Below are positions 14,359-27,606 of a stretch of DNA of 64,000 bases, piece after piece. The translations under genes were made by a program, and so were the position numbers. Location of the stretch: contig OY969706.1 in NCBI GenBank assembly GCA_963702095.1, positions 2,464,001 to 2,528,000 on the forward strand, written 5' to 3'. The notes beneath the pieces are model-generated. The model saw nothing but the letters and a program-made list of their open reading frames with translations. It did not search any database and was not told the DNA's origin. Each line of letters starts with the position of its first letter. Positions within the stretch are counted from its first letter, which is position 1. This stretch comes from Candidatus Bathyarchaeota archaeon (lineage in GTDB: Archaea; Thermoproteota; Bathyarchaeia; Bathyarchaeales; Bathycorpusculaceae).

Positions 14359-14809
14359 GTGTCACGGATGCCAAAGCAAGAAAAAGGAAAATCACATTCA
14401 ACTCGCCCAGTCAGCAGGCGCCCACCAAGCTGGTGCAAGTACCAGCCTGAAGAAGTAGAAGCCTTCATTATAAAACTCGGCAAAGAAGGCCACAACATGA
14501 GCAGCATAGGCACGATTTTACGCGACCAATACGCTATCCCACTTGTTAAGCCAATCACTGGCAAAAGCATAAGCGACACCCTCAAATCCGCAAACCTCGC
14601 CCCAGCCATGCCTGAAGACCTCGCTAACCTCATGAAAAAAGCCCAAGCGCCTCGCCGTCCACATGGATAAAAACAAGAAAGACCTCCACAACAAACGCAA
14701 CATGCAAATCATCGAAGCCCAAATCCACAAGCTCAGCCGCTACTACAAACGCGAAGGCGTAATCGACAAGAAGTTCAAGTACGAAGCAAAAATCGCCTCA
14801 GTAACCTAA
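14359..14809 (+). CDS. rps15: 30S ribosomal protein uS15 (1-nt frameshift at ~14647)
   Basis: KGKSHSTRP, IGTILRDQYAIP, PEDLANLMKKA; removing one base continues RLAVHMDKNKKDLHNKRNMQIIEAQIHKLSRYYK to TAA at 14807-14809. Confidence 0.95.
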
Positions 14810-18235: not shown

Positions 18236-20002
18236 CTAAGAAAGAAACCGCCTCGGATCAGTATCAATATCTACTATAACAGGTTTTTTAGCTTGCAATG
18301 CCCCATCCACGGCTGATTCGAGATCCGCTGGCTCAGTAACTTTAATGCCCACTCCCCCTGAATGCTCCGCAAAATCGGCGAAACTGTAATCATGCAGCTC
18401 GGTTTGCCAGCGCTCGTAGCCCTCAACTTTCTGCTCCTGCAAAATCATGCCCAAATGCTTGTTGTTTACAACGAAGATTTTGATGGGCAACTCGTATTTG
18501 AGTGCAGTTAAGAAGTCGCCTAAAACCATTGTTAAGCCACCGTCGCCTGTTATGCAGATAATCTGGCGCTCTGGATAAGCCAAAGCCGCCGCCAACGCGC
18601 CGGGTAAACCGAACCCCATCGTTGCCAAGTTGCCGCTCATAACCAGTTTCTGCGTCCGCTTCATGTTGAAGTTTCGTCCAAACCACCAGCAGTTCTCGCC
18701 CACATCGAGCGAAATCACTGCGTCTGACGCGACCTTCCGGTTTAGCACTTTCATGATGTATGGGGCTCGGATGGGCTTTGCAGATGCGTCTGCTTCTCGT
18801 TCCAGCTGGTCCAACCATGCTTTTTTGAGGCGCTCTACTTCAGCAACGTAGTCAGCGTTGTTTTTCTGTGCCACTTTCTCGGTTAATTTAGGGATCAGAA
18901 CGGCGCTGTTACCCAACAACGACACTTCAGCAGGGAAACGCCGTGCAATCATCAATGGATTTATGTCGATTTGAACCATGCGTTTGTGGGGAATCTGCGA
19001 TAAATCCGAAAAAGACACGCCTATGGCTATGAGCAAATCGGTTCTCTCCATCAGTATGCCTGCAGCGGTGGAGCCGATGCCGCCGTGGCAGCCCACGTAG
19101 AGCGGTTCGTCCGCGTCGACGAAGCCTTTAGCTGGGAAAGTCGAGATAATCGGTGCCCCAAGCTTTGAAGCCAGCGCCGTCACTTTGGTGCCTTGACCTC
19201 GGCAGCCAAACCCAATCAAAACCACCGGTCGAACCGAGCCATCAACGGCTTTTGCGGCTTTCTCAACCACCCAATCTTCCTGCCCATACGCCAAATTAGG
19301 CATCCTGCCCTCAAAAGGCGAAACCGGCGCGTCATAGGGCAACTTTGCAACATCGTTTGGGATACCGATGTGGGCAACGCCTTGGTTGAGCAGGGCATGT
19401 TTAATCGCCAAAGTAGCCAATGTGGTGGTTTGGTCTTCTGTCATTAGGGTTTTGTTGTAGACGCTTATGGGCGCAAAGAAGGCTTGGTGGTCGATTTCCT
19501 GCAGGGAACCTCTGCCGATTAGTTTGCGTGGAACCATACCGGTCAAAGCCAACACGGGAGAATGGTCCAGTTGTGCGTCGTACAAGCCGGTGGCGAGGTT
19601 TGTTGTGCCTGGACCCGAAATGGAGAGGCAGGCGGCTATGTGCCCTGTGAGTTTGCCGTATGCTGAAGCCATAAAAGCGGCGGTTTCTTCATGGCGAACT
19701 TGGATGTATTGGATTTTGCCCGATTTGCGTATGGCTTCTATGATGCTTAGGGTGGAGGTGCCGGGGATGCTGAAAACGTATTTGACGCCCCAAGCTGCAA
19801 GTTGGTTGATGAGTACATCTGAGACGGTGCTTGCCGACTTTGGCTCTTGCTTCTTTCCCTCTTCCGTGGCTAAGAGGACAAATGCGGATTTAGGCGCACC
19901 ACAAATTGGGCAAACCCACTCTTTAGGCAAATCCACAAAACGGACTTTCTCTTTTGCGTCGTCATAAACCCAGTTGCAGACGGTACACCGGTACTTCGCC
20001 AT
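18236..20002 (-). CDS. Rubredoxin-fused thiamine-diphosphate enzyme (pyruvate oxidase/PoxB-like)
   Basis: N-terminal [11 protein letters not shown]...[13 protein letters not shown] rubredoxin; [21 protein letters not shown]...NN ThDP motif. Confidence 0.88.
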
Positions 20003-20091: not shown

Positions 20092-20418
20092 TTAGAGTTT
20101 AAGTGTTTCCTTGATTTTTTCGTTTATTTCTTTCTTAAGCTGGGGACCAATCTGCCCTAACTCCCCCATCACCAGCTTTTTTGATAAGGTTGCGATTTTT
20201 TCAATTTTTAGATATGAATCGGTTTTTAACCCTGTTAGTCCGAATTCTATATGGCTCTCTTGTATCAGCACATCATAAGCGGTTGCTTTACTTATTCTCG
20301 AAGAGACGAAGACTACCGTAACATCTTTTTCGGCCTCAAACAAAACAAGAGCGGGTCTAACTTTAGCCGCTGTTAAGTCAGTAAATGGAAAAACGATGAG
20401 AACTATTTTTCCTTTCAA
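20092..20418 (-). CDS. PemK/MazF-family toxin
   Basis: GKIVLIVFPFTD....KVRPALV, SSR, GLKTDS....KIATL. Confidence 0.88.
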   Translation of the reverse strand: MKGKIVLIVFPFTDLTAAKVRPALVLFEAEKDVTVVFVSSRISKATAYDVLIQESHIEFGLTGLKTDSYLKIEKIATLSKKLVMGELGQIGPQLKKEINEKIKETLKL

Positions 20419-20618
20419 TTACGACTAACCTTTTTCTTAATATCATTAACTGAGTACAAATCGGGCTCTTCTTCCAAGAATTCTTTTAGAGCCTGTTCCT
20501 CAAGAACCATAATCGCGTCTGTTTCTCTTTCCTCGAGAAGAGAATCAAGTTTCTTGTTGACTTCTGAGAGCAAAGATTTGATTTCTTTAAGCTCAACCTC
20601 GATTGTCATTATTTCCAC
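20415..20618 (-). CDS. Probable antitoxin of the MazF-type module
   Basis: Small acidic protein overlapping the toxin start by 4 nt; C-terminal FLEEEPDLYS. Confidence 0.65.
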   Translation of the reverse strand: MEIMTIEVELKEIKSLLSEVNKKLDSLLEERETDAIMVLEEQALKEFLEEEPDLYSVNDIKKKVSRN

Positions 20619-20719: not shown

Positions 20720-21661
20720 ATGCCTGTCATGGAGAATTGGGATGTTATAATAGTGGGCGCTGGCTCAGCGGGATTAGCCGCAGCCATTTACGCAGTCCGC
20801 AGTGGACTCAAAACCCTAGTTTTGGACGAGAAATTCGCAGGCGGCACAATCACTGACGCCCCAACAATCGTAAACTACCCAGGTTTCGTCTCCATCAGTG
20901 GAGGCGATTTAGCACTGAAAATGGCTGATCACACTCGAGCCTTGGGCGCAACCATACATGATATCGAAGCCGTAACCGCCCTCAACCTCCAAGGCGAAAA
21001 CAAAACCGTAACCACCACCGCCACCACCTACGGCGCCAAAGCCGTCATTATCTCCACAGGTTCACATTACAAAGAAATCGGCGCCAAAGGCGAAAAAGAG
21101 TTCCGCGGCAAAGGCGTGAGCTACTGCGGCGTCTGCGATGGCCCCTTTTTCAAGGGCAAACGGGTCCTCGTTGTCGGCGGCGGCAACTCTGCTTGCATCA
21201 CCACCCTCTACCTATCAGGCTTAGCCGCACAGGTCACCGTCATACATAGACGCCAAATGTTCCGTGCTGAAGAATCCTTAGTCAACGACATAAACACAAA
21301 GGGTAACGTCAAAATCGTGTGGAACACTGAAATCCAAGAGATTAAAGGCGATAAACAGGTGCGCTCCGTAGCCTTAATCGACAACTCCACGGGGCAAACC
21401 AGCGAAATCCCCGTTGACGCCATTTTTGTGCAGGTGGGCGAAGCACCGAACAGTCAGATCGCACAAGCCAGCGGTGTAGAGGTGGACGAGCATGGCTATG
21501 TAAAAATTGACATCCGCCAACACACCAACCTCGAAGGCGTTTATGCTGCAGGCGACATCACTAACCACCCGGTGAAGCAGGTGGGAACAGCGGTTGGACA
21601 GGGAATAACGGCGGCGCTTGAAGCATACGCCTACATCAGACGACCATACTACAAAAAATAA
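20720..21661 (+). CDS. trxB: Thioredoxin-disulfide reductase
   Basis: GAGSAG, NYPG, GKGVSYCGVCDG (CxxC), VGGGNSA, YAAGDI. Confidence 0.94.
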   Translation: MPVMENWDVIIVGAGSAGLAAAIYAVRSGLKTLVLDEKFAGGTITDAPTIVNYPGFVSISGGDLALKMADHTRALGATIHDIEAVTALNLQGENKTVTTTATTYGAKAVIISTGSHYKEIGAKGEKEFRGKGVSYCGVCDGPFFKGKRVLVVGGGNSACITTLYLSGLAAQVTVIHRRQMFRAEESLVNDINTKGNVKIVWNTEIQEIKGDKQVRSVALIDNSTGQTSEIPVDAIFVQVGEAPNSQIAQASGVEVDEHGYVKIDIRQHTNLEGVYAAGDITNHPVKQVGTAVGQGITAALEAYAYIRRPYYKK

Positions 21662-22127
21662 TGGCGCTCCCCCGTCTGTTTCCACAACCATCCTGCAATC
21701 CATTTCCGATTTAAAACGCAAAAAACAGTCGCCAGCCAAGCCCCCAGAAGAAGATGAGCAAGGGCACCTCTGCCTTCATCTAACACTAGAAAAACAAAAA
21801 GCGAAATTTTGATCCACTGGTTTATAGGGAGGATAGTTGCTGAGCAACAGAACCTGCGCATACAACCAATAATGGCGCCATCAGGCGTAAAACTGGACAA
21901 TTGTTAACTGTTCTATCATGCAATCTTTTGTAAAGTACAGTGCTGTTTGGGTTGACTGAAAAACAGGCAAATAATACGTTTGTTAACATCTCGGTATATA
22001 TGGAGTTTTCATTATTTTGCGGGGGAAGGATTATATGATTCTTAAAACCTCTCTGTGCCTTCAAAGCGCTTTTAGCATGCACGCTAAAGCGTCGAGTTAA
22101 TGGCGGAAAAGCAAAAGAGGTTTACTA

Positions 22128-23349
22128 ATGAGTGAGAAATGTCTCGCTGCAGTTGAGATAAATCAAGACCTGTGCAGTAGATGTTATGTCTGCAAATCCA
22201 TCTGTCCCTATGAAGCCATAAAAGCTGACTCGACTGGGAAAGTTGAGATTAACATAGAGGATTGCCAAGTCTGTGGCATCTGCTACAGTGCCTGTCCAGC
22301 TTCAGCCATAAAAATGCAGTATTACACATACGATAACCTAACAGAATACCTAAAAAGCGCCCAGGCAAAAAGCGCCTAAAACCGAAACACTGGTTCTGAT
22401 GTGCAGAGGAAACTCGCCTAACAGCGGCGAAGTCAAAGACATCCTAAAAGAGCAAGGACTCAAAGTATCCGATTACCTCTCGTTGCGTTTGCCCTGTGCC
22501 GGCAGAGTCCCAACCGACTTTGTTTTCGAAGCCCTAAACTTAGGCATAAAAAACATCGTTTCCATCCAATGTGAAGACCCCTTCTGCCGCTACAAAGAAG
22601 GCACAAAAATCAACACACGCAGACTCGCATTGGCAAAAAATGTGCTCCAACAACTCGGCTACGACGAAAACGCCGTTCGAGTCATCAAGTACAGCCGCAA
22701 AGCAGTCTACGACGTGCTCGAATGTGTGGGCTGCGACAAATGCATATTCATCTGTCCCTACGGCGCATTAGAATTCGAATCCTTCGCAACACCAAAAGTA
22801 ATCGAAGAGAAATGTGTGGGTTGCGGTGCATGCCAGTTGGTTTGTCCACATCACGCCATACAAGTCAAAGGCTTCGAATTCGAAAATGTGCTTAACCGTT
22901 ACAACAGCGCTGCAGAAGCCATCAAAGCCAAAGGCAACAGCCCAGCAGTTCTCGCATTTATCTGTCAATGGTCAGAGTTCTCTGCTTTGGATAACCCTAA
23001 CAAAGCCTTTGAAGGCAAAAACGTGTTGGCGCTTGAAGTGCCCTGCTTCAAATCCCTCGACCCCGTCCACGTTGTCAACGCACTCAACTGCGGCTTTGAC
23101 GGCGTCATGGCAGTGGTTTGCTCCTCCAAGGACTGCAAGCTACAGGAGGGCAGAGACACAGCTGAACGCAACTTAGGCGTCATGCTTGATGTCCTCAAAA
23201 AAGAAGGCTTACTTGATAGGTTTACGCTCTACGAGGAGTCGCCTCGCTGCGACGGGGACTTCCAAGCCAAAGTAGACGAGTTCTACCAGAAAATAACCAA
23301 GTTATCTAAAACAGCTAAACTGGAGGCACTACAGCAATGTACAGAATAA
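22128..23349 (+). CDS. Tandem (2x[4Fe-4S] ferredoxin + MvhD/FlpD)x2 iron-sulfur protein (1-nt frameshift at 22377)
   Basis: Two CxxCxxCxxxCP pairs, then MvhD-like C...PCAGRV...QCEDPFCRY, two more ferredoxin motifs, then AFICQW...PCFKSLDP...GFDGV..VVCSSKDCK. Deleting T22377 fuses the two ORFs in frame. Confidence 0.8.
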
Positions 23350-24188
23350 TCAGCAAAACCGAGCTTGTGCCAAAAATCAAGCTCTTCGAAGTTGAAGCCC
23401 CAGATATCGCCGCAAAAGCCCACCCAGGCCAATTCTTAATAGTCATCCACGGCAAAAAGGGTGAGCGCATCCCCTTAACCATCTGTGGCTATGACACCGA
23501 AAAAGGCACGGTTTCGTTTGCGTTCCATGAAGTGGGCAAAAGCACCAAAGACCTCGGCAAACTAGGCGTCGGCGACGAAATCGACAATGTTACCGGACCA
23601 TTGGGTAATCCCTCTGAAATCAAGAACTATGGCAAGGTGCTGTGTGTCGGCGGCAGCGTTATGATTGCGCCGCTTCTGCTGCAGTCTAAAGCCATGAAGG
23701 AAGCCGGCAACAACGTCACAACAGTAATTGGCGCACGCACAGAACCCTTCATCATGATGGAGGAAGAGGCAAACGAGTACAGCGACAAAGTCTACCTCTC
23801 AACTGACGACGGCTCCAAAGGCTACCAAGGCTTAGACTTCCTCACTGAATTGCTCAAAGAAGAAAAGTTTGACCGATGCGTCGTTATGGGTCCAGTTATC
23901 CTGATGAAAGATGTTTCGGCAATCACCAAGCCCTATGGCATCCCAACCATAGTCACAACTACGCCGATTATGATTGACGGCATGGGCATGTGTGGGGTTT
24001 GCCGCGTGACGGTCGGGGGCAAAATGCTCTTCGGTTGCGTGGATGGACCTGAATTTGACGGTCACCAAGTTGATTTTGACGAGTTGATTCTGCGTCAACG
24101 CACGATGCTTCCTGAGGAACGGTTAAGCAGCGTGTTGGCAGAACTGCATGAACATGGAGGTTGCAAGTGTGGCAGAAACAAAGCCTAA
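23337..24188 (+). CDS. nfnA: NfnA/SudB subunit of ferredoxin:NADP+ oxidoreductase
   Basis: PGQF, GERIPLTI, GPLGNP, TDDGS, MIDGMGMCGVCRV, CVDGPEFDGH. Confidence 0.92.
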   Translation: MYRIISKTELVPKIKLFEVEAPDIAAKAHPGQFLIVIHGKKGERIPLTICGYDTEKGTVSFAFHEVGKSTKDLGKLGVGDEIDNVTGPLGNPSEIKNYGKVLCVGGSVMIAPLLLQSKAMKEAGNNVTTVIGARTEPFIMMEEEANEYSDKVYLSTDDGSKGYQGLDFLTELLKEEKFDRCVVMGPVILMKDVSAITKPYGIPTIVTTTPIMIDGMGMCGVCRVTVGGKMLFGCVDGPEFDGHQVDFDELILRQRTMLPEERLSSVLAELHEHGGCKCGRNKA

Positions 24189-25581
24189 ATTTAAACTAAA
24201 CAAGAAAGCAGTTGAAATGGCAAAGCAGGACCCCAAAGTCCGCGCTAAAAACTTCAGCGAAGTCGCACTGGGCTACACCGAAGCGGAAGCCCAAGAAGAA
24301 GCTAACCGGTGCCTACAGTGCCCCAACCCGATGTGCAGAGGCGGTTGTCCCGTTGAAGTCCCGATTCCACAGTTCATCAAAGCCATTAAAGAAAAGAAGT
24401 ACGCTGAAGGCATCCAAATCATTAAAACCAAAAATGCGTTGCCCGCTGTGTGCGGTCGTGTTTGTCCACAGGAATCGCAGTGCCAAGCCAAATGCGTCAT
24501 CGGCAGAATGGGCGAACCCGTCAGCATAGGACGCCTTGAACGGTTCTTGGCGGATTGGGAACGTGACAACGGTTCCCAGTTGCCCCCCAAAGCGGAGCCA
24601 ACAGGCAAAAAAGTTGCAGTCATCGGTGCAGGCCCCGCAGGCTTAACTGTCGCAGCAGACCTCGTCAAGCAAGGCCACGAAATCACCATCTTCGAAGCAT
24701 TACACGTCGGAGGCGGAGTGCTCTCTTATGGCATCCCCGAGTTCCGTCTGCCAAAAGCAATCGTGCAAAACGAGGTAGAATATGTGCAGAAACTCGGCGC
24801 CAACCTTAAACTTGGCAACTTAATCGGCAGAATCCACACCATCCCCGAACTCATGAAGCAAGGCGGCTACGACGCAGTCTTCATTGGCTCTGGTGCAGGT
24901 TTGCCTCAGTTCACAGGGTGCCCCGGCGAAAACTTAGGCGGCATCTACAGCGCCAACGAATTCCTCATCCGAGTCAACCTCATGAAGGCTTTCCAGTTCC
25001 CAGAATACGACACACCCATCAGAGTGGGCAAACACGTGGTGGTCATCGGCGGCGGCAACGTTGCGATGGACTGCGCAAGATGCAGCATGCGCTTGGGCGC
25101 TGATGTTTGCCTGCTGTATAGGCGTGGACGCGAAGAGTTACCGGCAAGGCACGAGGAAATTGAGAACGCTGAGGAAGAAGGGTTGGTTTGCAAGTTTTTG
25201 GCGGCGCCACTGGAGTTTTACGGTGACGGCAAGGGCTGGGTGAAAGCCATGAAATGCATTGCTATGGAACTCACGGAGCCAGATGCTAAAGGCAGACGAG
25301 GAGTCAAACCCATAGTGGGCTCAGAATTCGTCATGGACGTTGACACAGTCATAATCGCCATCGGACAAACCCCCAACCCCATCATCCAACGCACCACCGA
25401 CGGCTTACAAAGCGACCCAAGACACGGAACCATCACAGTCAACGAAGACGGCAAAACCAGCCTCGACGGAGTCTACGCAGGCGGAGACGTCGCCACAGGA
25501 GCAGCCACAGTCATCTCTGCGATGGGTGCCGGCAAACGCGCAGCCAAAGCCATGCACGAATACCTCATTAACAAAAAATGA
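24169..25581 (+). CDS. nfnB: NfnB/SudA (GltD-like) subunit
   Basis: RAKNFSEV, EANRCLQC..P.C..GCPV, CGRVCPQE.QC, GAGPAG, YGIPEFRLPK, GGGNVAMD, GGDVATGAATV; GGAGG before GTG at 24169. Confidence 0.92.
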   Translation: MAETKPKFKLNKKAVEMAKQDPKVRAKNFSEVALGYTEAEAQEEANRCLQCPNPMCRGGCPVEVPIPQFIKAIKEKKYAEGIQIIKTKNALPAVCGRVCPQESQCQAKCVIGRMGEPVSIGRLERFLADWERDNGSQLPPKAEPTGKKVAVIGAGPAGLTVAADLVKQGHEITIFEALHVGGGVLSYGIPEFRLPKAIVQNEVEYVQKLGANLKLGNLIGRIHTIPELMKQGGYDAVFIGSGAGLPQFTGCPGENLGGIYSANEFLIRVNLMKAFQFPEYDTPIRVGKHVVVIGGGNVAMDCARCSMRLGADVCLLYRRGREELPARHEEIENAEEEGLVCKFLAAPLEFYGDGKGWVKAMKCIAMELTEPDAKGRRGVKPIVGSEFVMDVDTVIIAIGQTPNPIIQRTTDGLQSDPRHGTITVNEDGKTSLDGVYAGGDVATGAATVISAMGAGKRAAKAMHEYLINKK

Positions 25582-25702: not shown

Positions 25703-26611
25703 TTACCTTCTTCGACGCAGATAAACAACCACAAAAACCAACAACACCGCAATAACACCGAGCAATACAGCTATAGCAATCTCCACTGCGTTCAAGTTTA
25801 GAAACGTCGAGTAGCCAGATACAAGCTGGCCTGATGTGGCTGTTGGGTTCTGAGGGCAGGTTGACATTGGAGTCGGCGGTGTTGAAGGTTCAACCTGAGG
25901 AGTTGCAGTTGGAGTGGGTGCAACCGCTGAGGTGTGTGAAGAGGACACAAAAACTGAACCTGCAATCATTGTTATTGTTTGTGTGCTACTCCAATCGCTT
26001 TCTGCAGAGACGTCAAACGCGTTGCCGTCATAGAGAGGAAACATGTGGTCAGTATTCCAAAAAAACTTTTGGTAACCCACGAACGCTTTAACTTGAATAT
26101 CGATCTGGTCACCGTTCCGCATAGGCCAGATGCTTTGTCCTTTAACATAAGTTAAAATGGTGTACCCTGAGTTTGACGCTTGGATTTTTGTTGTTTGATA
26201 TTCAATAGGCCAAGGCACATATGAATCTGATGGACGAACCGCAGAAACTGACTGCTCCTGCCACTCAGTTCCAAAGTGCCCCTTAACACGCACGGTATAG
26301 TACAAACCATTGTCCGAGTTATTTCCAAGCGACTCTGAAGACAACGGCTGGTTCTTGATGGATAGCTCTATTGTTTTGTTTTCCACGTGGTATCCGCCGC
26401 TTCTATGGGTTACTTGCTGTCCGTTATAGGGGTCTGTTGTGGTAGTAATAACGAGCGGAACATCATATGAGTTATCTACATACTCAATTGTGAATTGGGG
26501 AACGGAAGGATTAGGTGCCGATGATTCAGCCTTCGCAATATCCAAATAACCGACTACTCCGCTAACCATCAACACAATCAGGAACGGTGTTAATAATTTC
26601 TTAGAGGCCAT
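25703..26611 (-). CDS. Secreted, membrane-anchored surface protein (paralog A)
   Basis: Signal peptide, PSVPQFT..YVDNSYDVP...DPYNG...HVENKTIELSIKNQP, S/T/P linker, C-terminal TM plus RRRR. Confidence 0.75.
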   Translation of the reverse strand: MASKKLLTPFLIVLMVSGVVGYLDIAKAESSAPNPSVPQFTIEYVDNSYDVPLVITTTTDPYNGQQVTHRSGGYHVENKTIELSIKNQPLSSESLGNNSDNGLYYTVRVKGHFGTEWQEQSVSAVRPSDSYVPWPIEYQTTKIQASNSGYTILTYVKGQSIWPMRNGDQIDIQVKAFVGYQKFFWNTDHMFPLYDGNAFDVSAESDWSSTQTITMIAGSVFVSSSHTSAVAPTPTATPQVEPSTPPTPMSTCPQNPTATSGQLVSGYSTFLNLNAVEIAIAVLLGVIAVLLVFVVVYLRRRR

Positions 26612-27443
26612 CTTGTTTTCTCTCCAAAACCCTGATTCTCCTACCTTGAAGAGCAATAACCACAACCAACAATGCAATCACTATGCTCACAACAACGAAG
26701 ACAACAACTTCTAACCAATCGAAATCAAACCCAAACAATGAAAAACTCTCCGCTGCTTGTTCAGGCGTTAATGTTGGGGTTTCAGAGGGTGTAGCAGTCG
26801 ATGAAACTGTTGAATGCGGCGATATTGACTGTGAAACCGTCGGGTTTGAGGTAGATGCGGAAACTGAAACTTCCGGTATGCTTATTGTCAGGGTGTCGCT
26901 CCATCCGCTGACTTCACCGTTAAAGGTGTAATAGTGTGTATCCATGAACTGCATAGGATAAAATATCTCGGTAAAGGTCCCAATTTGTGCTTGAACCCTA
27001 TAATCCATTTGCCCTTCGGCTGGAAGATTTGATAGAGAAATAACCGTATGCTCAGAGTCTGACTGCCTAGTGAACCAGCCCGTATTGCTGTCATAACCAA
27101 TGTAGCTCCACTTAGTTCCGTAATGGCCCTTATAGCTAACGTTATAATATAGACTGGCGTAACTGCCATCGCTTAGCATAGGCAAAGGTTGATTCTCAAT
27201 GGTAATTTCGACTGATTTATTCTCAGCATGGTATCCAGCTTGCTGCGTGACTGTTTTACCTGTATAGGGGTCGGTAGTAGTAATGGGTGCAACATTATAG
27301 GGATGTTCAACAAACTTTACAGTGAATTCTGGTACTGACGGTTTAGGTAGTATTGCCTGAGCTGATGTGGGAAGAGTTAATGGAGTGCTAACTGTCAATA
27401 CCAGCAGAATAGCCAATGAAGCAACTGTTCCCATTTTGTTCAT
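26601..27443 (-). CDS. Secreted, membrane-anchored surface protein (paralog B)
   Basis: PKPSVPEFTVKFV..PYNV...DPYTG...HAENKSVEITIENQP, YYNV..KGHYG, S/T linker, C-terminal TM; clear paralog of the adjacent gene. Confidence 0.75.
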   Translation of the reverse strand: MNKMGTVASLAILLVLTVSTPLTLPTSAQAILPKPSVPEFTVKFVEHPYNVAPITTTDPYTGKTVTQQAGYHAENKSVEITIENQPLPMLSDGSYASLYYNVSYKGHYGTKWSYIGYDSNTGWFTRQSDSEHTVISLSNLPAEGQMDYRVQAQIGTFTEIFYPMQFMDTHYYTFNGEVSGWSDTLTISIPEVSVSASTSNPTVSQSISPHSTVSSTATPSETPTLTPEQAAESFSLFGFDFDWLEVVVFVVVSIVIALLVVVIALQGRRIRVLERKQDGL

Positions 27444-27606
27444 GGATTCATCCTGGGTTGGTTTGCCAATTAACGGCTTCTTGTACAGGTTTCTTGACAA
27501 GGCTCAGTCCACATTCCTTGACTAACCACCGATTGCCTCCGAAGTGTTGAGGAATGGTTTAATTCTTATATGCAAGCAGCCATTACCCCCTTTGAGGGAA
27601 AACGGG

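Follow-up and report, generated by a model that had tools for sequence, protein, structure and literature searches.

A tandem ferredoxin–MvhD protein encoded with NfnAB in Bathyarchaeia, a candidate adaptor between NfnAB and an MvhD-docking module

We examined an iron–sulfur (Fe-S) protein gene and the nfnA and nfnB genes that follow it in the genome of Candidatus Bathyarchaeota archaeon (assembly GCA_963702095.1, contig OY969706.1). The window, meaning the whole stretch of 64,000 nucleotides that was analysed, corresponds to C1:2,464,001–2,528,000 of this genome; coordinates below are window positions unless they carry the prefix C1 or belong to another named locus. The Fe-S protein has the fused order 2×[4Fe-4S], MvhD, 2×[4Fe-4S], MvhD, for which we use the label FMFM. 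On balance, we favour the reading that FMFM is one Fe-S protein, split in this genome by an assembly error, and that it would serve as an accessory subunit linking NfnAB to an MvhD-docking module, most likely the hydrogenase MvhAG.

The FMFM protein and its interrupted gene

Four + strand reading frames occupy the region: ORF1, ORF2, an nfnA-like frame and an nfnB-like frame. ORF1 (83 aa, 22128..22379) is the first piece of FMFM, containing the first 2×[4Fe-4S] ferredoxin domain (residues 9–63; Pfam Fer4 and Fer4_7) and a linker, and it ends at a stop created by the frameshift. A Shine-Dalgarno-like GAGG, read from the sequence, lies on the same strand at 22117..22120, 7 nt 5′ of the start codon. 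The second piece (22381..23349, + strand) comprises MvhD-like domain 1 (~22384–22683), the second 2×[4Fe-4S] domain (~22702–22869), MvhD-like domain 2 (~22942–23304), a C-terminal tail and the stop. ORF2 (22399–23349, 316 aa) is one frame on from ORF1, and its frame is open from 22354. No comparable Shine-Dalgarno-like motif precedes the ATG at 22399, which lies one residue upstream of a conserved cysteine, a putative cluster ligand. Read through, the two pieces give 406 aa. An earlier note on this DNA had proposed a single protein of ~406 aa in this order, and relatives indeed carry it as a single ORF.

ORF2 scored 121.9 bits against Pfam FlpD/MvhD (PF02662; cut-off 22.3) in two stretches with Fer4 between them, which places it in this family. 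In a genome-wide profile search, the two MvhD domains scored 76.5 and 49.7 bits. Across 46 family members of 31–92% identity, 24 cysteines are invariant (8+4+8+4). Those of the MvhD units, C92/C123/C148/C153 and C279/C306/C331/C336, align with cysteines of solved MvhD chains and are predicted to act as ligands; the four cysteines that the earlier note had recognized in each unit are kept in all 46 members. In total, six clusters are predicted for FMFM, four [4Fe-4S] and two [2Fe-2S].

The two halves of FMFM are homologous to each other (23% identity, E 8e-16). The best NCBIfam match of each half is to positions 573–774 of the 777-position HdrA2 model, reached in two stretches (E 8.4e-52) with a model score of 176 bits against a cut-off of 1100. 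Ferredoxin unit 1 matches the C-terminal ferredoxin domain of HdrA in the Protein Data Bank (PDB; 8rvu_a residues 587–652, 5odc_A residues 578–638), and MvhD domain 2 matches solved MvhD chains there. An AlphaFold2 model of FMFM built from a 46-row alignment (pLDDT 85, pTM 0.83) was compared with the PDB by Foldseek. The MvhD chains 5odc_D (TMt 0.77) and 8rvu_F (TMt 0.81) aligned with a single domain, MvhD domain 2, over 124–130 columns at an rmsd of ~2.5 Å, and no PDB chain resembled the whole of FMFM (TMq ≤ 0.32). Pfam gave no Pyr_redox family match on either FMFM piece, and no FAD domain was found. By homology, FMFM consists of two tandem copies of the module that forms the tail of HdrA2, namely its C-terminal ferredoxin domain plus MvhD. 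The earlier note had also considered that the architecture might be a fragment of a known HdrA–MvhD fusion. This was ruled out: FMFM is a conserved ORF of ~400 aa with its own start, is complete in relatives and covers only HdrA2 positions 573–774.

A homologue search with ORF2 returned 1375 relatives. The best 120 matches include 115 proteins of 399–422 aa, four of 340–345 aa (gene calls starting at M63) and the window's own 316-aa piece. Relatives are named 'hydrogenase iron-sulfur subunit' or 'F420-reducing hydrogenase delta subunit' in their sources, mostly Bathyarchaeota/Bathyarchaeia. Orthologues read straight across the break, with '...AQAK(S/A)PKTETLVLMC...' continuous, and 59 uninterrupted ORFs from loci L004–L063 cover both pieces, so that the comparison with orthologues confirms the fusion. 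In blastn, the best-matching relatives each show one 1-base gap at 22364..22371, in the GG (22364–65) or the A5 (22367–71) run. The ORF2 frame already gives the conserved 'KAPKTETLVL' 5′ of 22377. The surplus base therefore lies at 22364–22371 and not at T22377, where the earlier note had put it; the protein length is unchanged whichever base is removed. In four public sequencing runs, all contigs crossing the site lack one letter at 22364 or 22366. These contigs are DNA of relatives and not of this strain, and no public run contained more than 0.11 of the sampled words.

The split of FMFM is most likely a one-base homopolymer assembly error. Apart from the surplus base the gene is intact, with all 24 cysteines kept, no other stops and 93–96% identity to the relative P0003 (96% for piece 1 against its residues 1–83). 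We surveyed breaks elsewhere by taking 581 ORFs (≥150 aa) out of loci L004–L063; these matched 47 places in the genome at ≥60% identity. Ten of these places show two adjacent matches in different frames. In seven (7/47) the stops fall in both frames of this genome, so the break lies here; in two it lies in the relative, and one is ambiguous. A run of at least four identical bases (A5, A5, A5, A6, G4 and G4/C4-type) marks six of the seven junctions. One of the seven breaks splits the gene of ribosomal protein S15 (14359–14809) beside an A6 run, leaving one ORF with Ribosomal_S13_N (14359–14670) and another with Ribosomal_S15 model positions 36–77 (14663–14809). No free-living archaeon could do without an intact S15 gene, and the assembly must therefore carry indel errors; the FMFM break, being of the same kind, is most likely another. 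Many homopolymer errors like it appear to be present, and the completeness score of only 90% for a genome in one 2.94-Mb contig fits this picture.

Alternatively, the frameshift may be real, in which case FMFM in this strain would be a freshly inactivated pseudogene or a split gene being lost, and the cell would rely on a second, FMFM-less nfnAB pair at C1:1.647 Mb. The NfnB tree points to several losses of FMFM, and only one of the five other genomes sampled from the genus gave a full-length FMFM match. The public reads at the site come from relatives only, which weighs against the error reading to the extent that it leaves room for a recent frameshift in this strain. A pseudogene is nevertheless very unlikely in our judgement: the gene is otherwise intact, the like breaks in the survey include S15, which cannot be a pseudogene, and the ATG at 22399 would start the second piece with no ribosome-binding motif, right before a putative cluster ligand. 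Programmed +1 frameshifting at A-AAA-A was considered, since a slip on A5 is conceivable, and was ruled out: the extra base is absent from all aligned relatives and similar breaks abound. Two loci elsewhere are interrupted in a comparable way, probably by the same kind of sequencing error. In L157 (4989–6179), FMFM lies in two ORFs, and in L028 (3395–5606), mvhG/mvhA is in pieces.

Linkage of FMFM to nfnAB

The stop of FMFM (23347–23349) overlaps the start of nfnA, as the earlier note had described; with the nfnA ATG at 23337, the overlap is 13 nt. The nfnA gene (23337..24188, + strand, 283 aa) encodes an NfnS-type small subunit that matches PDB chains 5jca_S (1.8e-76) and 4ylf_A (1.2e-74). 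It is followed by nfnB (24148..25581, + strand, 477 aa), encoding an NfnL-type large subunit that matches Thermotoga maritima NfnB (4ylf_B, 2.2e-165) and, from Pyrococcus furiosus, NfnI-L (5jca_L, 6e-152) and NfnII (2.4e-149). The nfnA and nfnB frames overlap by 41 nt, and relatives of nfnB begin at its third codon, 24154.

NfnA keeps the D-x4-C-x2-C-x11-C [2Fe-2S] motif, with D214, C219, C222 and C234 invariant in the NfnA alignment. Its 'DGMGMCGVCRV...GCVDGPEF' aligns with the P. furiosus NfnS motif, as in a PyrK-type small subunit. In NfnB, both [4Fe-4S] motifs, 'RCLQCP..C..GCP' and 'VCGRVCPQE.QC...C', are aligned and kept, including the Glu position of CPQE, as in a GltD-type subunit. The portion of PMC9503767 available to us describes Asp and Glu as non-cysteine cluster ligands of NfnSL, together with the path that leads over the proximal and distal clusters to ferredoxin. 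Judged by these motifs, nfnA and nfnB encode a genuine canonical NfnAB, whose bifurcating activity, with NADPH as reductant of both NAD+ and ferredoxin, is predicted.

The earlier note had proposed a survey of the linkage across archaea. A genome scan with one genome per species returned 138 FMFM relatives, of which the best 80 were examined; nearly all are from metagenome-assembled genomes of Bathyarchaeia, at 65–95% identity. The order FMFM, nfnA, nfnB along a single strand is found in 77 of these loci, and the other three stop at a contig edge. Full-length FMFM is found in 27 of 151 sampled Bathyarchaeia genomes. Wherever it is at least 45% identical (17/17 genomes), nfnB lies ~0.8 kb downstream. 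Four genomes of family f15 carry an FMFM of 43% identity. In one of them, G012, nfnA follows FMFM, and nfnB is ~5 kb off on the opposite strand; G070 and G096 have the same spacing by coordinates, and in G084 the genes are split over contigs. Six genomes have FMFM copies of 34–36% identity that are unlinked to nfnAB.

A metagenome scan made with a 6-sequence alignment extended the survey. Nine loci of 43–54% identity have nfnA directly downstream of FMFM, five of them also with nfnB, and one further locus (L149, 53%) ends right after FMFM. At 33–44% identity, 70 metagenome loci, some on short contigs, gave no nfnA match. NfnB is commoner than FMFM, being found in 92 of the 151 genomes at E ≤ 1e-90. 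In relatives, contigs from RNA libraries bridge FMFM to nfnA and nfnA to nfnB; this is a weak hint of co-transcription, as DNA can occur in such libraries. The tight linkage and the overlapping reading frames fit a dedicated Fe-S subunit.

Candidate partners of FMFM

Neither hdrA nor mvhAG lies in the window, as the earlier note had stated; such genes lie elsewhere on the contig. The only other MvhD domain of the genome belongs to an HdrA2-type gene (HdrA2::MvhD) at C1:1.80 Mb, 680 kb away and accompanied by a polyferredoxin. NiFe hydrogenase genes are found at 0.58, 0.61 and 1.44 Mb. The genome also encodes hdrC-hdrB-mvhG-mvhA-hycI, where mvhD does not occur as a gene of its own, and a Hox-type hydrogenase; a genome search found no MetV.

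In other genomes, hydrogenase genes adjoin FMFM. In G006, mvhG-mvhA-hycI-FMFM-nfnA-nfnB is contiguous on one strand, and G012 has a contiguous mvhG-mvhA-hycI-FMFM-nfnA, its nfnB lying nearby in divergent orientation. The same mvhA–FMFM adjacency is seen from the coordinates of G070, G096 and G084, and in L028 the broken mvhG-mvhA precedes FMFM. Of the 21 genomes that carry an Nfn-type FMFM, 19 also encode a close MvhA (≥65% identity). In G077 (L220, C32), nfnA-nfnB come directly after the gene of a 712-aa HdrA::MvhD-type protein whose C-terminal domain is MvhD; adjoining on the other strand are mvhG-mvhA, an 806-aa HdrA::MvhD-like (hdrA2) gene and an hdrB-like gene. The earlier note had suggested an Hdr-like or other redox partner. 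Among third parties, an Mvh-type [NiFe] hydrogenase recurs most often, and HdrA::MvhD comes second. A glutamate dehydrogenase gene lies near nfnAB in G077 and likewise beside nfnB in G012.

A distant branch of FMFM paralogues has other neighbours. MetV (PF12225) is the next gene in seven of the nine loci examined, and MetF in L085. In two loci of this branch, a ~530-aa version is followed by a ~1000-aa double HdrA-like protein plus MvhD. Of 80 metagenome loci, 20 have MvhA upstream of the paralogue, for example as MvhA-FMFM-MetV-MetF in L086; none of these 20 is of the nfnAB type. Collectively, the MetV-linked loci look like a candidate H2-linked MetVF methylene-tetrahydrofolate (methylene-THF) reductase. 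Judged by gene neighbourhood, the FMFM family is a modular adaptor, whose deeper branches stand beside MetV/MetF and not NfnAB. The 'dedicated Fe-S wire' of the earlier note accordingly holds in part. One fused protein with tight and wide linkage to nfnAB in overlapping frames is what a dedicated subunit would show, but FMFM is only an accessory, and its deeper branches adjoin MetV/MetF. In the loci L085, L086, L100, L105, L128, L139, L160 and L162, the paralogue is often preceded by mvhGA, by a single MvhD or an HdrA/NfnB-like flavoprotein, or by FdhA or FrhB.

MvhD is described, in the accessible text of PMC9012536 and PMC6085437, as a [2Fe-2S] adaptor through which electrons of MvhG or Fdh reach HdrA at its C-terminal ferredoxin domain. 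The ferredoxin port of NfnSL is the distal [4Fe-4S] cluster of the large subunit, according to the part of PMC9503767 at hand. From these, we infer complex formation, docking site, partner and reaction of FMFM as follows. FMFM would be co-produced with a canonical NfnAB (NfnSL) from overlapping frames, as an accessory third subunit. It would form a six-cluster chain, one end of which stands in for ferredoxin at the distal [4Fe-4S] of NfnB, while its MvhD domains dock a separately encoded module that donates or accepts electrons, for which the Mvh-type [NiFe] hydrogenase MvhAG is the likeliest candidate. Such an assembly might then couple H2 to the NADPH/NADH pools with no free ferredoxin (H2 + NADH + 2 NADP+ <-> 2 NADPH + NAD+ + H+), or run in reverse to release H2 from NADPH. 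Complex prediction for NfnB with FMFM, both taken from an intact relative (L008; NfnA left out of the 1161-residue trimer) gave a score of 0.00 and a mark of 0.32, which speaks neither for nor against binding.

Several observations weigh against this reading. The close relatives are not independent of one another, and 77/80 largely amounts to shared ancestry. On a 45-row NfnB tree, the FMFM-adjacent NfnB proteins are scattered, requiring nine changes (shuffled mean 13.9), at least six of them forced by well-supported branches. This genome has a second nfnA-nfnB pair outside the window (C1:1646975–1649238; L172 4975–7238), with no upstream FMFM, and the subunit is thus dispensable. Its NfnB and NfnA are 61% and 48% identical to the window pair, and this NfnB groups on the tree with FMFM-less copies of genus-mates. 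Because of the scatter and of the FMFM-less second pair, we regard FMFM as an accessory and not as a defining part of this Nfn lineage, which is otherwise ordinary and in which FMFM was repeatedly lost or gained. As to the hydrogenase, mvhGA directly adjoins an Nfn-type FMFM in only five of 21 sampled genomes (two families) and in 1/80 close loci. G020, a genome 100% complete, has FMFM-nfnAB and no MvhA at E ≤ 1e-80, and the MvhA of G037 is only 42% identical. In G011, nfnA-nfnB-mvhG-mvhA is contiguous on one strand (L219, C1:192767–197533) with no FMFM or MvhD, so the adaptor may not be required.

FMFM could instead link NfnAB to an HdrA/HdrBC-type heterodisulfide- or thiol-reducing module, in which case the MvhD domains would pass electrons of NAD(P)H into or out of the site of Hdr bifurcation. 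Both FMFM units share homology with the HdrA2 tail, and HdrA2::MvhD, a polyferredoxin and hdrCB are all present in this genome, where the HdrA2 gene nevertheless lies 680 kb away. The thioredoxin-reductase-like gene, a conserved upstream neighbour (72/80 loci), would suit such a module, as would the HdrA with an inserted NfnB/GltD domain that accessible parts of PMC9012536 and PMC9430772 describe for ANME-1 and Moorella. HdrA::MvhD genes (ORFs of ~700–800 aa) adjoin nfnAB in G077 and, by coordinates, in G136, G100, G135 and G108. FMFM is absent precisely where they do, however, and HdrA::MvhD looks like an alternative to FMFM and not its partner. Within 6 kb of FMFM in the 80 close loci, moreover, no homologue of hdrA, hdrB or hdrC was found, the HdrA2 matches there being FMFM itself. 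We consider an Hdr partner doubtful.

Gene linkage alone would fit equally well if FMFM were a cognate carrier and no stable subunit at all: a dedicated soluble, polyferredoxin-like carrier or electron buffer for NfnAB that replaces ordinary ferredoxin, close to the 'built-in low-potential acceptor' of the earlier note. Repeated loss of the linkage is expected of a replaceable carrier, and one protein family serves different enzymes, NfnAB or MetVF. The MvhD fold, however, is a bound adaptor between two enzyme modules in all solved complexes matched (5odc, 7bkb and 8rvu). The 13-nt stop/start overlap with nfnA suggests stoichiometric co-synthesis, and hydrogenase genes stand directly upstream of FMFM in two families. 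A free carrier is thus unlikely, and we retain the accessory subunit that docks MvhAG as the preferred reading.

A bolder extension of the accessory-subunit reading is possible and is offered tentatively: MvhAG-FMFM-NfnAB may be an undescribed hydrogenase class in Bathyarchaeia and other FMFM-bearing lineages, in which NfnSL replaces HdrABC as the partner of Mvh, with a sister class MvhAG-FMFM-MetVF. The former would couple H2 directly to NADP+/NAD+ by flavin-based bifurcation or confurcation with no free ferredoxin. The latter would drive H2-dependent reduction of methylene-tetrahydrofolate (or methylene-H4MPT). FMFM would then be a general 'universal plug', through which MvhD-docking modules could be swapped between flavoenzymes.

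Neighbouring genes and known systems

Upstream of FMFM, a gene at 20720..21661 (+ strand) encodes a thioredoxin-reductase-like flavoprotein of 313 aa (TIGR01292, 333 bits against a cut-off of 343; Pfam Pyr_redox_2), whose homologues hold the same place and strand in the 72 relatives' loci mentioned above. On the minus strand, 18236–20002 encodes a rubredoxin domain fused to a pyruvate-oxidase-like TPP/FAD enzyme (588 aa). This gene is divergent and upstream of the thioredoxin-reductase-like gene, FMFM and nfnAB in 52/80 relatives' loci, and its product could be an electron source for the cluster. Between these two genes, at 20092–20618 on the minus strand, lie a PemK/MazF-like toxin ORF (107 aa, Pfam 6.6e-12) and a 67-aa upstream partner with no family. 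In relatives, the flanking genes are only ~120 nt apart, and the pair therefore looks like an inserted toxin–antitoxin pair. Downstream of nfnB, two paralogous minus-strand ORFs (25703–27500; 324 and 299 aa) have Thr/Pro-rich stretches and hydrophobic C-terminal ends. No Pfam family matched the 324-aa ORF, and the paralogues are kept beside the operon in only 1/80 relatives' loci.

Full-text literature searches, which did not extend to subscription-only papers and supplements, turned up no account of an MvhD-type subunit in an Nfn enzyme. None is mentioned in the accessible portions of a review of Nfn distribution (PMC6405883), a survey of bifurcation (PMC6085437) or PMC11631310, PMC7886697, PMC9723716 and PMC5736913, several of which concern Bathyarchaeia. 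The literature treats NfnSL as a two-subunit enzyme with soluble ferredoxin as its only partner. If a conserved third Fe-S subunit made of the HdrA/MvhD docking module exists, abundant uncultured archaea of sediment and soil would have the balance of NADPH and NADH wired firmly to H2 or to chemistry of the Hdr type. Metabolic reconstructions of Bathyarchaeia would then change in how they treat H2 cycling and acetogenesis and in the role that they assign to 'Hdr/Mvh' genes of non-methanogens, and biochemists would gain a compact new bifurcating assembly that can be tested. The MetV-linked branch, for its part, bears on the question of the electron donor of MetVF-type methylene-THF reductases. 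The FMFM-nfnAB arrangement is a real, conserved feature, with domain-level precedents in HdrA with an inserted NfnB/GltD domain and in MetFV-HdrABC-MvhD.

Among known systems, the MvhD/VhuD subunit (PF02662, FlpD) of MvhAGD-HdrABC and FdhAB-MvhD-HdrABC (PDB 5ODC, 7BKB and 8RVU) resembles FMFM in family match, fold and four aligned cysteines, and the FMFM gene, too, can adjoin mvhGA. MvhD is a stand-alone bridging subunit of ~140 aa, whereas FMFM is a tandem fusion of ~406 aa in which each MvhD is preceded by 2×[4Fe-4S]. The first and third cysteines of the N-terminal C-C-x-W-C motif of MvhD are replaced in FMFM, and the flavoenzyme beside FMFM is NfnAB or MetVF, not HdrABC. The HdrA2-type HdrA::MvhD fusion (NCBIfam NF040770; Methanosarcina HdrA2) has a tail region that each FMFM half matches; residues 589–762 of this genome's own HdrA2 are 27–31% identical to FMFM. 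FMFM differs from HdrA2 by having no thioredoxin-reductase-like FAD domain, no N-terminal (cluster) domain and no inserted ferredoxin domain.

The NfnAB pair of the window is closely homologous to the NfnAB/NfnSL enzymes of T. maritima (4YLF) and P. furiosus (NfnI, 5JCA), with E 2e-165 and 2e-76 and cluster motifs kept. As so far known, the enzyme is made of two subunits and works with free ferredoxin, whereas a third Fe-S gene is co-encoded here. In NfnABC/Stn of the Bfu family, the additional subunits are NuoF/HydB-like and HydA-like; the FMFM operon has only FMFM, NfnA and NfnB, and the Bfu-type chains 9n5u_A and 8oh5_C match only through an NfnB-like part (1e-83 to 1e-92). Polyferredoxins (MvhB/FwdF) are chains of Fer4 only. 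Those in the PDB match just the two Fer4 units of FMFM, to which FMFM adds two MvhD domains.

In FlxABCD-HdrABC of Desulfovibrio, electrons pass from an NfnA-like FAD/[2Fe-2S] subunit to Fe-S subunits and to the MvhD-like FlxD, which makes the connection with HdrABC. The Fe-S subunits of Flx are HydB-like and its MvhD is single; to our knowledge, Flx has no NfnB. The Hdr-type MetFV-HdrABC-MvhD complexes of Moorella and Sporomusa are a further parallel, as the distant FMFM paralogues likewise adjoin MetV/MetF. Pull-downs in Sporomusa ovata, reported in the accessible part of PMC9430772, indicate that MvhD interacts with MetF and with Hdr subunits. In the paralogue loci, by comparison, a doubled ferredoxin–MvhD protein replaces or adds to the single MvhD, often after mvhGA, and no hdrBC was seen in the loci examined. 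Further domain-level parallels to the proposed wiring, ANME-1 HdrA9-11 and Moorella HdrA with their inserted NfnB/GltD domain (PMC9012536 and PMC9430772, as far as their text was available), likewise wire an NfnB-type NADPH flavoprotein to Hdr/MvhD electron transfer. The link there is a fusion inside HdrA, whereas here it would be a separate adaptor, with NfnAB kept as a separate canonical pair.

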